This document shows positions 8,163 to 26,986 of a DNA stretch of 64,000 nucleotides, in pieces. Where the stretch lies: the NCBI RefSeq assembly GCF_041248615.1, contig NZ_CP158426.1. One strand, 5' to 3'. Within the stretch, counting starts at the first letter, position 1. Each line of letters begins with the position of its first letter. The notes under the pieces were generated by a model. The model was not told the origin of the DNA and did not search any database. It saw only the letters and a program-made list of their open reading frames with translations. Source of the DNA: Escherichia coli. Lineage in GTDB: Bacteria; Pseudomonadota; Gammaproteobacteria; Enterobacterales; Enterobacteriaceae. A program made the position numbers and the translations under genes.

Positions 8163-8333
8163 AAACCAACCTGTCAGAAGTTTTCTACAAACATTTTCAC
8201 CCCGCGATCGCGAGGCAAACCAAATCGAAACGCGTATTAGCTTTTCGGATTATACGCCCTCAACAGAGCCTGTCTCAGCAATGATTATGACAAAGAAAAT
8301 CACCGATGAGCCAGGTTCTGGTACGAAAGCGTG

Positions 8334-8363
8334 CAAAAAGGGCATCAAATGATGCCCTTTTAG
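8334..8363 (-). terminator. rho-independent terminator downstream of tufB
   Basis: Minus-strand hairpin aagggcatcatttgatgccctt followed by T-run, about 30 bp after tufB stop. Confidence 0.7.
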
Positions 8364-8391
8364 TGCGCATTGCGTCAAATGTTATCGGCAA

Positions 8392-9612
<1,221 letters not shown>

Positions 9613-9690
9613 TCACCACATCAACCAGGCAACATGCCCGACTTGTTGAATGCAATAAACAGAAGGAAAAAACAGGGAGGAGAAAAGAAG

Positions 9691-9766
9691 TGGTGCTGAT
9701 AGGCAGATTCGAACTGCCGACCTCACCCTTACCAAGGGTGCGCTCTACCAACTGAGCTATATCAGC
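9691..9766 (-). tRNA. thrT: tRNA-Thr
   Basis: Minus-strand sequence GCTGATATAGCTCAGTTGGTAGAGCGCACCCTTGGTAAGGGTGAGGTCGGCAGTTCGAATCTGCCTATCAGCACCA (76 nt, CCA end, GGT anticodon). Confidence 0.93.
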
Positions 9767-11475: not shown

Positions 11476-12438
11476 TTATTCCGCACTACGCAGGGATATT
11501 TCACCGCCCATCCAGGGTTTTATTATTCCATCCTGCTCAAGTAATAAAGCGCCCTGTTTGTCTATTCCGCGCGAAATGCCAAATATTTCTTTATCACCAA
11601 TGATAAGTTTCACTGGGCGATTAATAAAATTATCCAGCTTTTCCCAGCGCGAAAGATAAGGTGCCAATCCTTCTTGCTCGAAGAGTTCCAGCGCCGTGCG
11701 TAATTCACGTATGAGCATGGCCGCCAACGTATTACGATCGAGATTGATCCCGGCTTCCTGAAGCGTGATCCACCCTTGATTAACGACACTCTCTTCAACA
11801 CGACGCATTGCCATGTTGATCCCGGCACCAATGACTATTTGCGCCGCATCGCCGGTTTTGCCAGTTAGCTCCACAAGAATGCCTGCCAGCTTGCGATCCT
11901 GCAGATAGAGGTCATTAGGCCATTTAACACGAACTTTATCAGCACCCAGCTTGCGTAATACTTCCGCCATCACGATACCGATAACCAGACTTAAACCAAT
12001 CGCCGCCGCCGGGCCTTGTTCCAGACGCCAGAACATCGACAAATATAAGTTTGCTCCAAAAGGCGAAAACCATTTCCGACCCCGGCGACCACGGCCAGCC
12101 TGCTGGTATTCTGCAACGCAGGCATCGCCCGATTTAAGCTCTCCGATACGATCAAGAAGGTACTGATTCGTGGAGTCAATCACTGGCAGCACAGTTACAC
12201 TACCGCCATCCAGCTGACCCAATATCTGTTCAGCATTAAGTAACTGGATAGGCTCAGGCAGGCTGTATCCTTTACCCGGAACGGTAAAGACATCAACGCC
12301 CCAGTCACGCAGTGTCTGAATGTGTTTATTAATAGCCGCCCGGCTCATTCCCAGCGTTTCACCCAACTGCTCGCCAGAGTGAAATTCACCGTTCGCTAAT
12401 AGGGCGATCAATTTCAGTGGCACGGTGTTATCCTTCAT
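11476..12438 (-). CDS. birA: biotin--[acetyl-CoA-carboxylase] ligase / bio operon repressor
   Basis: 320-aa product [60 protein letters not shown]... with GRGRRGRKW biotin-binding loop. Confidence 0.96.
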
Positions 12439-13463
12439 GAAATCGTCTCCACTGCGCTCACTTCACCTGATGCACCAATAAAGCGGACTTCAGGCTCAAG
12501 CCAGACATTAAATTTTTCACCCACTTTTTGTCTTACATGGTGTGCCAGTTGCACCACATCTTCGCTTTTTGCATTGTCTTCATTAATGAGAACTAACGCC
12601 TGTTGACGGTGCACCGCTGCACCACCCATTTGCATCCCTTTTAGCTGGCACTGATCGATAAGCCAACCTGCTGCCAGTTTTACTGAACCATCCGCCTGGG
12701 GATAATTTGGTGCTGTTGGAAATTGTGCCAGTAATGCTTTAGCCGTTTCGGCAGATACAACAGGGTTTTTGAAGAAACTACCGGCATTGCCATTCACTTT
12801 TGGGTCAGGAAGTTTGGTGGTGCGCATATGACACACCGCATCAAATACTTGCTGTGGCGTTATTGTTGTAGGATCCAGACGAGTTAAGTCACCATACGTT
12901 AGTACAGGTTGCCACTCTTTTGGCAGACGCAGACCTACGGCTACAATGGCGAAGCGATCCTGGTATTCATGTTTAAAAATACTGTCGCGATAGCCAAAAC
13001 GGCACTCTTTGGCAGTTAAGCGCACTTGCTTGCCTGTCGCCAGTTCAACACAATCAACATAAGCGCAAACTCGCTGTAATTCTACGCCATAAGCACCAAT
13101 ATTCTGGATAGGTGATGAGCCGACACAACCAGGAATTAATGCCAGATTTTCCAGACCAGGCATACCTTTCTGCAAAGTGTATTTTACCAGGCGATGCCAG
13201 TTTTCTCCGGCTCCTACATGTAAATACCACGCATCAGGTTCATCATGAATTTCGATACCTTTGATCCGGTTGATGATCACCGTGCCGCGATAGTCTTCCA
13301 GAAAAAGTACATTACTTCCTTCACCCAGAATAAGAACGGGTTGCCCTTCTGCGGTTGCATGCTGCCAGGCATTGAGTAGTTGTTGTTCGTCTTCGGCACA
13401 TACAATGTGCTGAGCATTATGATCAATGCCAAATGTGTTCCAGGGTTTTAAGGAGTGGTTCAT
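12435..13463 (-). CDS. murB: UDP-N-acetylenolpyruvoylglucosamine reductase
   Basis: 342-aa product [69 protein letters not shown]...; 4-bp overlap with birA start. Confidence 0.96.
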
Positions 13464-13550
13464 AGCTGCTTTCCTGATGCAAAAACGAGGCTAGTTTACC
13501 GTATCTGTGGGGGGATGGCTTGTAGTTATGACGACAGGGAGAGTTTGTAG

Positions 13551-13590
13551 AAACGCAAAAAGGCCCAGTCTTCCGACTGAGCCTTCTGCT
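13551..13590 (-). terminator. rRNA operon terminator immediately after 5S rRNA
   Basis: Minus-strand hairpin AAGGCTCAGTCGGAAGACTGGGCCTT followed by TTTTT, 8-10 nt past the 5S 3' end. Confidence 0.75.
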
Positions 13591-13597
13591 AAATTTG

Positions 13598-13717
13598 ATG
13601 CCTGGCAGTTCCCTACTCTCGCATGGGGAGACCCCACACTACCATCGGCGCTACGGCGTTTCACTTCTGAGTTCGGCATGGGGTCAGGTGGGACCACCGC
13701 GCTAAGGCCGCCAGGCA
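13598..13717 (-). rRNA. rrfB: 5S ribosomal RNA
   Basis: 120-nt minus-strand match to E. coli 5S rRNA (TGCCTGGCGGCC...AACTGCCAGGCAT) with one apparent substitution near the 5' end. Confidence 0.95.
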
Positions 13718-13811
13718 AATTCTGTTTTATTAACCCGCTTACCGCCGGTTAATTTAATCTGTATCAGGCTGAAAATCTTTCTCTCATCCGCCAAAACATC
13801 TTCGGCGTTGT

Positions 13812-16716
<2,905 letters not shown>

Positions 16717-16919
16717 TCACAACCCGAAGATGTTTCTTTCGACTCATCATCGTGTTGCGAAAATTTGAGAGACTCACGAACAACTTTCGTTGTTCAGTGT
16801 TTCAATTTTCAGCTTGATCCAGATTTTTAAAGAGCAAATATCTCAAACATCACCCGAAGATGAGTTTTGAGATATTAAGGCAGGTGACTTTCACTCACAA
16901 ACCAGCAAGTGGCGTCCCC

Positions 16920-16995
16920 TAGGGGATTCGAACCCCTGTTACCGCCGTGAAAGGGCGGTGTCCTGGGCCTCTAGACGAAGGGGACGTATCAGTCT
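16920..16995 (-). tRNA. gltT: tRNA-Glu (16S-23S spacer tRNA)
   Basis: Minus-strand GTCCCCTTCGTCTAGAGGCCCAGGACACCGCCCTTTCACGGCGGTAACAGGGGTTCGAATCCCCTAGGGGACGCCA (76 nt, TTC anticodon). Confidence 0.93.
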
Positions 16996-17070: not shown

Positions 17071-18612
<1,542 letters not shown>

Positions 18613-21631: not shown

Positions 21632-21872
21632 TGTAAAGCATCCACAATAGAAGAAGGATGCCGCAGGTTTCATCAATATTACGCGATGATGAGAACCAGA
21701 TGCGACGTTGGCCGGCAGGTCTTCGGGCTTGGAGGGGTATCTAAGATACTAAGAGATGATGACTTCCCACCGGATGGCAGTGTCCGCATAACGCAATCAT
21801 CGCACCTTTCCTTACCGCTGCGCGTCAGCTCCAGATTTGCACTGGATTCCCTATTAACTCACAGGACCGGCG
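21632..21872 (-). promoter_or_regulatory. cobalamin (B12) riboswitch in btuB 5' leader (approximate span)
   Basis: About 240-nt untranslated leader directly upstream of btuB, where the well-characterised B12 riboswitch lies; boundaries approximate, structure not folded here. Confidence 0.7.
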
Positions 21873-21999
21873 AGTGGATGCTACAGGTTGTAACAAGTTA
21901 CTGTCCAGACGTAGCTCACAAATAGGAATACATCAAGATCTGGACATCTGATGAGCAATCCCTACAATCGCCGCGTACTTTAATTTTTCAGGATACATC

Positions 22000-26876: not shown

Positions 26877-26986
26877 GAAACGGAGCGGCACCTCTTTTAA
26901 CCCTTGAAGTCACTGCCCGTTTCGAGAGTTTCTCAACTCGAATAACTAAAGCCAACGTGAACTTTTGCGGATCTCCAGGATCCGCT
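26877..26986 (+). ncRNA. oxyS: OxyS small regulatory RNA
   Basis: Sequence GAAACGGAGCGGCACCTCTTTTAACCCTTGAAGTCACTGCCCGTTTCGAGAGTTTCTCAACTCGAATAACTAAAGCCAACGTGAACTTTTGCGGATCTCCAGGATCCGCTTTTTTTTGCC, divergent from oxyR and ending in a hairpin plus T-run terminator. Confidence 0.9.

Follow-up and report, generated by a model that had tools for sequence, protein, structure and literature searches.

The 3′ end of rrnB upstream of murB is a common single-terminator allele in Escherichia coli

The rrnB operon in the analysed stretch of Escherichia coli DNA (64,000 nt, hereafter the window) ends in a single intrinsic terminator, with murB starting 134 nt downstream of the 5S rRNA gene. The synteny (16S, tRNA-Glu, 23S, 5S, terminator, murB-birA) and a near-identical murB leader are shared with K-12 rrnB; unlike K-12, the window has one terminator instead of two, 134 nt instead of 300 nt, and a stem other than GGCCATCCTGACGGATGGCC. 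This single-terminator end is an ordinary variant, a known kind of element that has already been sequenced thousands of times. We read the interval as the natural rrnB 3′ end of a lineage carrying a single-terminator allele, with the short form most likely native and the K-12-type cassette gained elsewhere by gene conversion, and we put the probability of this reading at roughly 0.7.

All genes of the operon lie on the minus strand. Rfam places the 16S rRNA at 17071–18612 and the 23S rRNA at 13812–16716, and a tRNA scan places tRNA-Glu at 16910–16985. The final gene is the 5S rRNA (rrfB) at 13598–13717, with an Rfam 5S_rRNA match at 13600–13715 (93.2 bits). We placed the mature 5S ends from an alignment with K-12 rrfB (annotated length 120 nt, ending in CAGGCAT); this 3′ end corresponds to window position 13598. 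murB, encoding a UDP-N-acetylenolpyruvoylglucosamine reductase of 342 amino acids, occupies 12435–13463 on the minus strand (ATG at 13461–13463), as given by the open reading frame list and by the RefSeq annotation of an identical record. The interval between the mature 5S end and the murB start codon is thus 13464–13597, or 134 nt; counted from the Rfam/RefSeq 5S end it is 136 nt. Rfam, the tRNA scans, the open reading frames and RefSeq together give a locus order that matches E. coli rrnB: btuB-murI, 16S, tRNA-Glu, 23S, 5S, murB-birA, coaA and thrU-tyrU-glyT-thrT. According to Brandis et al. 2019 (PMC6735719), the segment murB-birA-coaA is inserted between rrnB and tufB. Over the 501 nt compared, the end of rrnB is 100% identical to the finished chromosome NZ_LT599825.1 of E. 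coli isolate NRZ14408, which we used as the source genome for readings of rrnD, rrnE and the phylogroup markers. The other gathering-level Rfam matches in the window are ordinary for the region: OxyS (26877–26986, plus strand), a cobalamin riboswitch (21697–21886, minus strand), StyR-44 beside the 5′ end of the 23S gene (16724–16832, minus strand) and P26 (4529–4590, minus strand).

Read on the minus strand, the 5S gene ends in AACTGCCAGGCAT and is followed by CAAATTTAGCAGAA GGCTCAGTC GGAA GACTGGGCC TTTTTGCGTTT, after which the murB leader runs from CTACAAACTC to AGGAAAGCAGCT and the ATG. Folding and comparison with the K-12 terminators identify 13551–13589 (minus strand) as the sole intrinsic terminator of rrnB. 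In this element, GGCUCAGUC (13575–13583) pairs with GACUGGGCC (13562–13570) across a GGAA loop (13571–13574), the U-tract UUUUUGCGUUU (13551–13561) lies directly 3′ of the stem, and A-rich bases at 13584–13589 are able to pair with the U-tract. The 9-bp stem consists of six G-C, two A-U and one G-U pairs. In a 53-nt context the hairpin folds with −23.8 kcal/mol (z = −5.1), and none of 200 dinucleotide shuffles was as stable; for comparison, the values are −32.6 kcal/mol for K-12 T1, −22.7 kcal/mol for K-12 T2 and −30.2 kcal/mol for the equivalent hairpin of strain EC958. Folding of the remainder of the 134 nt showed no other notable structure, and by folding and alignment there is only one hairpin in 13464–13597, not the tandem hairpins that follow the 5S gene in K-12. 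The first-pass annotation had described a single terminator after the 5S gene, and the one hairpin with its U-tract agrees with that description.

A GC-rich, stable hairpin with an adjoining U-rich tract makes this element a predicted intrinsic terminator. Judged by its fold, and because its parts are identical to those of K-12 T1 and T2, the hairpin should terminate efficiently. Transcription past the 5S gene would meet one Rho-independent terminator with a 9-bp GC-rich stem, a GGAA loop and a U5GCGU3 tract, and transcripts would end approximately 40–47 nt beyond the 5S gene, with the 87-nt murB leader and then murB-birA lying downstream. The rrn antitermination system acts mainly on Rho-dependent termination. 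A simple consensus terminator scan of 13300–13800 reported no terminator; when the same scan was run on K-12 it found T1 and missed T2. Since K-12 T2, with identical flanks, escapes it too, we discount its silence at 13551–13589 as a sign of absence. The miss probably reflects a limit of the rule used by the scan, in which greedy stem extension would consume the T-run.

The murB leader (13464–13550, minus strand) aligns with that of K-12 with two substitutions and contains an AGGA Shine-Dalgarno sequence at 13472–13475. Further upstream in the leader, at 13493–13498 on the minus strand, lies a TAAACT element in the context (G)GTAAACTA. TAAACT is present in nearly every enterobacterial murB leader that we read, including those of E. 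coli, Kluyvera, Citrobacter, Enterobacter, Klebsiella, Raoultella and Leclercia, with one instance of TACACT. It is possibly the −10 element of a murB promoter, a candidate that would have no good −35 element; a consensus sigma-70 promoter scan of the murB leader detected none.

In K-12 MG1655, rrfB ends at 4171756 and murB starts at 4172057, leaving a gap of 300 nt. The first-pass annotation had given the 134-bp spacing exactly and had correctly put that of K-12 at some 300 bp; since the K-12 gap is 300 nt, K-12 does not share the 134-bp arrangement. Alignment of the window with the rrfB-murB intervals of K-12 and of strain MEW gave one clean gap, of 166 nt relative to K-12 and 168 nt relative to MEW, and bore out the proposal that the window lacks the unit comprising T1, spacer and partial 5S 3′ end. 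The aligned gap spans the 3′ flank of T1, a spacer of approximately 115 nt and the repeated 5S 3′ end. An 18-nt sequence made up of the 5S 3′ end plus CAAAT (AACTGCCAGGCATCAAAT; 13593–13610, minus strand) is present here as a single copy; in long alleles it occurs twice, as a direct repeat, with the 166–168-nt unit of T1, spacer and partial 5S between the copies. No second 5S 3′ end (AACTGCCAGGCAT) was found between terminators, the only copy being that at the true end of the 5S gene, and the conserved spacer of approximately 115 nt (ATCTGTTGTTTGTCGGTGAACGC...) is absent from the window locus.

The terminator in the window is a mosaic of T2-type flanks around a T1-type stem-loop. Its flanks, CAAATT(T/A)AGCAGAAGGC...CCTTTTTGCGTTTCTACAAACTC, match those of K-12 T2 on both sides. 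The hairpin core GGCTCAGTCGGAAGACTGGGCC matches K-12 rrnB T1 at 21 of 22 positions and the T1 elements of K-12 rrnA, K-12 rrnD and NRZ14408 rrnD at all 22, and the stem differs from the K-12 T2 stem GGCCATCCTGACGGATGGCC. The earlier suggestion that the flanking sequence resembles the T2-side junction is correct; it overlooked the T1-type hairpin core, which is shared with rrnA and rrnD.

To count the two forms we used a long-form query in which the cassette spacer is joined to the murB leader, so that coverage of at least 80% is possible only where a cassette adjoins murB. By this measure a cassette adjoins murB (the long form) in 2516 of the 5426 complete E. coli genomes (46%), and a second query derived from MEW gave an equal count. 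An rrfB-murB query was covered in 5392 genomes, which by subtraction leaves approximately 2876 (about 53%) with the short form; in all 16 rows sampled across the ranking of the short class, rrf and murB lay under one match of 148–150 nt. A count of long-form genomes by the spacer alone was dropped, since the spacer also occurs at rrnA, rrnD and rrnE and is hence not specific to the locus. Phylogroup placement covers a few named strains together with an in silico marker check. Short-form strains include EC958 (ST131, phylogroup B2), O157:H7 (phylogroup E, with the cassette only at rrnD) and NRZ14408. The last of these is positive for chuA, negative for yjaA and carries a gene between iclR and aceK, the arpA position, a profile that we take to indicate phylogroup D or E (D/E-like) in the Clermont scheme. 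The long form is carried by K-12 (phylogroup A) and by the B1 STEC strains O103:H2 12009 and O45:H2, among others.

The junctions of EC958 and Escherichia whittamii are built like that of the window, with the full 5S gene followed by CAAATTAAGC(A/G)(G/A)AAGG, a hairpin GGCYCAGTCGRAAGACTGRGCC, a run of T and the leader of murB, and a spacing of 132–134 nt. The differences from the window are few: TTT in place of TTA in the 5′ flank, one stem pair that is U-G instead of C-G, and two SNPs in the leader. Two long alleles are chimeric. In O103:H2 the flank CAAATTAAGCAGAAGG of short alleles and an EC958-type hairpin make up the first terminator (retrieved piece, 412–640), and the allele continues with the 3′ flank of T1, the spacer, the partial 5S and K-12 T2, so that perfect direct repeats of 31 nt surround the unit. 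In MEW a K-12-like first part is followed by a window-type hairpin as the second terminator and by the leader SNPs of the window (CTCTCCC, CATAACT). MEW-type long alleles are rare, at approximately 14 genomes among the matches listed, and the 5′ end of murB in MEW differs from that of the window at 2 of 340 positions.

The rrnB T1-T2 region of K-12 was reportedly described by Brosius and colleagues in 1981, and the cassette has been used in pKK-type vectors. The ‘rrnB T1T2’ of textbooks and vectors represents a single allele of a module that is polymorphic and evolves in concert, and not a species-wide structure. Expectations taken from K-12 (300 nt, two terminators) are unsuitable for flagging deletions in other strains. 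The biological weight of the difference is small, the operon end in the window being ordinary and, to judge from its sequence, probably fully functional.

The cassette is found at several rrn operon ends. K-12 has it at rrnB, rrnA and rrnD and has single terminators at rrnG and rrnE; the rrnB and rrnA cassettes of K-12 differ at 1 of 168 nt, and the rrnD cassettes of K-12, O157:H7 and NRZ14408 group together by locus. In other strains, for example S1-ISR-02-A, a cassette is present at rrnE. The spacer query was unmatched anywhere in 1414 of the 5426 E. coli genomes (about 26%), and NRZ14408 has exactly one cassette copy, at rrnD. The ends of K-12 rrnG, K-12 rrnE and NRZ14408 rrnE are like that of the window in that the 5S gene is followed directly by one hairpin and U-tract, and K-12 rrnG and NRZ14408 rrnE share its CAAATTA... 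flank. Their stems are unlike that of the window, being GGCCATCCTGACGGATGGCC at K-12 rrnG and NRZ14408 rrnE and unrelated at K-12 rrnE, and downstream of these three ends lies REP-like sequence or yjaA, not murB. As these sequence comparisons indicate, the cassette is a module common to rrn operon ends and not a local duplication at rrnB. The pattern of 0 to at least 3 cassette copies per genome, together with the chimeric junctions, offers a small example of gene conversion in rrn trailers; our literature searches found no description of natural variation in the rrnB trailer.

Two further ends of NRZ14408 were read in passing. At rrnD (NZ_LT599825.1 562158–563713; retrieved piece 8259–9714), T1, spacer and partial 5S are intact after rrfF, and IS1414, an element of the IS256 family, starts right after CAGACATCAAATC, at the position that T2 occupies in K-12 and O157:H7; this operon end thus consists of T1 and then an IS. 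The single terminator of rrnE (retrieved piece 15540–15793) has the stem GGCCATCCTGACGGATGGCC, that of K-12 rrnB T2, and is followed directly by yjaB, with yjaA, the neighbour of rrnE in K-12, absent.

For outgroups we retrieved the murB loci of 80 species representatives, of which 35 were undecidable because their contigs end before the 5S gene. Among the 45 decidable Enterobacteriaceae species, the K-12-type cassette is absent at murB in 41, with a full 5S end 112–262 nt upstream of murB, a count that would be biased if cassette-bearing ends break assemblies more often, as they may. A degenerate arrangement with two terminators occurs in two of these, Enterobacter sp. JUb54 and Raoultella ornithinolytica. 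One terminator directly follows the full 5S gene in E. whittamii, Escherichia sp. E1V33 and the species representative ‘E. coli’ E69; it belongs to the flank and hairpin family of the window in E. whittamii and has a T2-type stem in the other two. A homologous cassette lies at murB in 4 of the 45; its identity is 96% in Kluyvera genomosp. 3 and Citrobacter portucalensis and 81% in Enterobacter sp. CC120223-11 and RIT691. Judged from these loci, the short form is the common state at the rrnB-murB junction across the family, and the cassette is nonetheless old. One further locus, that of Escherichia sp. MOD1-EC7003, has no 5S gene upstream of murB within the 421 nt available (retrieved piece 1–424). 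It reads instead through an rrnE-type T2 with REP-like sequence, an IS1414-like end and a transposase start into the last approximately 75 nt of the murB leader, and is the second case, after NRZ14408 rrnD, of an IS1414-like element beside an rrn terminator.

On the direction of change, the outgroup distribution and the near-identity of the K-12 rrnB and rrnA cassettes both support a gain. The short rrnB-murB junction is most likely the native (ancestral) state in Escherichia, and inter-operon gene conversion probably brought the module of T1, spacer, partial 5S and T2 into rrnB in the lineages that have it there; the exchange would have used the 5S gene at one end and homologous terminator sequence at the other. 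The O103:H2 and MEW chimeras resemble a native short rrnB end overlaid by conversion tracts whose end points differ. This direction, gain over loss, is the most likely one by comparison of alleles and loci, and the 5′ 340 nt of murB, with only 2–6 differences within E. coli, held too few to polarise it. Since a 96%-identical cassette lies upstream of murB in Kluyvera and Citrobacter, the long form at murB must be either old or repeatedly regained, and ‘ancestral’ is itself hard to define for sequences under concerted evolution.

The opposite direction, in which a MEW-type long ancestor lost T1, spacer and partial 5S through recombination or replication slippage between the AACTGCCAGGCATCAAAT(T) repeats, has the attraction that direct repeats of 18 nt (K-12, MEW) to 31 nt (O103:H2) flank the unit, so that a clean deletion is feasible. 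In a MEW-type allele such a deletion would give the window sequence bar one base, MEW shares the T2 hairpin, the leader variants and the near-identical murB 5′ end with the window, and the cassette is old and present at murB in other genera. However, the approximately 14 MEW-type genomes among the matches listed stand against some 2,900 window-like and EC958-like short alleles, which occur in strains of B2, E and D/E-like type and also in three representatives of other Escherichia species. Frequent deletion should also have yielded short alleles with the GGCCATCC stem from the approximately 2,500 K-12-type genomes, and none of the 16 sampled short-form E. coli rows carries the K-12 T2 stem. 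We therefore regard secondary loss as rather unlikely and think that the window strain probably did not acquire its short form by deletion. Recombination between the duplicated 5S ends had been one of two origins offered by the first-pass annotation; it is mechanistically possible given repeats of 18–31 nt and is not favoured, the short allele being both widespread and in the majority. The other origin, a duplication specific to the K-12 lineage, turned out to be wrong. That K-12 is long, the window short and the majority of E. coli genomes short would fit a local tandem duplication of the terminator peculiar to K-12, with all other E. coli window-like, but 46% of complete genomes are long at rrnB, the B1 STEC strains O103:H2 and O45:H2 among them, the module also lies at rrnA and rrnD of K-12, at rrnE of S1-ISR-02-A and at rrnD of O157:H7 and NRZ14408, and it is found upstream of murB in Kluyvera, Citrobacter and Enterobacter; such a duplication is highly improbable. 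It is scarcely conceivable that the short interval arose in assembly, by collapse of the repeated 5S 3′ end over a true tandem cassette. Short-read assembly can collapse such repeats, and breaks at this point are found in many of the draft outgroup contigs, but the finished NRZ14408 chromosome is identical to the window throughout the compared region and its assembly does resolve the cassette at rrnD. The same junction also occurs in complete genomes by the thousand, and outgroup contigs run from the 5S gene straight into murB. The natural single-terminator end, with the cassette gained by conversion in other lineages, is thus the reading that we prefer.

The spacer between T1 and T2 was examined for itself, with copies taken from retrieved pieces L029 (356–482), L013 (1–127), L030 (87–214) and L067 (1–123). 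It is 96% identical between E. coli and Kluyvera/Citrobacter, though the adjoining murB leader is strongly diverged. The first spacer hairpin of the Enterobacter and RIT691 copies (81% identity) stays paired through three compensatory pairs; their second hairpin differs in sequence and is still self-complementary. RNAalifold pairs the upstream UGUUUGUCGGU with the 5S 3′ end in the spacer unit. Comparison of these copies suggests that the spacer may be under constraint. That the 166-nt unit of T1, spacer and partial 5S could be a conserved functional RNA module moved by gene conversion, for example a processed trailer RNA or an element for processing or for release of antitermination, is a speculative idea that we consider doubtful; were it true, strains would differ in the copy number of the module and the short allele of the window would be a natural null at rrnB.

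As a decayed full-length 5S gene, the spacer with the partial 5S was rejected, there being no Rfam 5S match and an alignment to the 5S interior no better than shuffles (274 of 500 scored as high or higher), and ARAGORN found no tRNA relic in the spacer. An RtT-like element in the K-12 spacer (retrieved piece 444–487) scored 17 bits with E = 0.7, far below the gathering threshold and too weak to accept. The K-12 spacer also matches the tyrT-tyrV spacer at 27 of 32 positions (GAACGTTGC...GCAACGGCCCGGAGGGTG), and this likeness to RtT and tyrT-tyrV could reflect a small hairpin motif shared by the trailers of stable-RNA operons, or chance.
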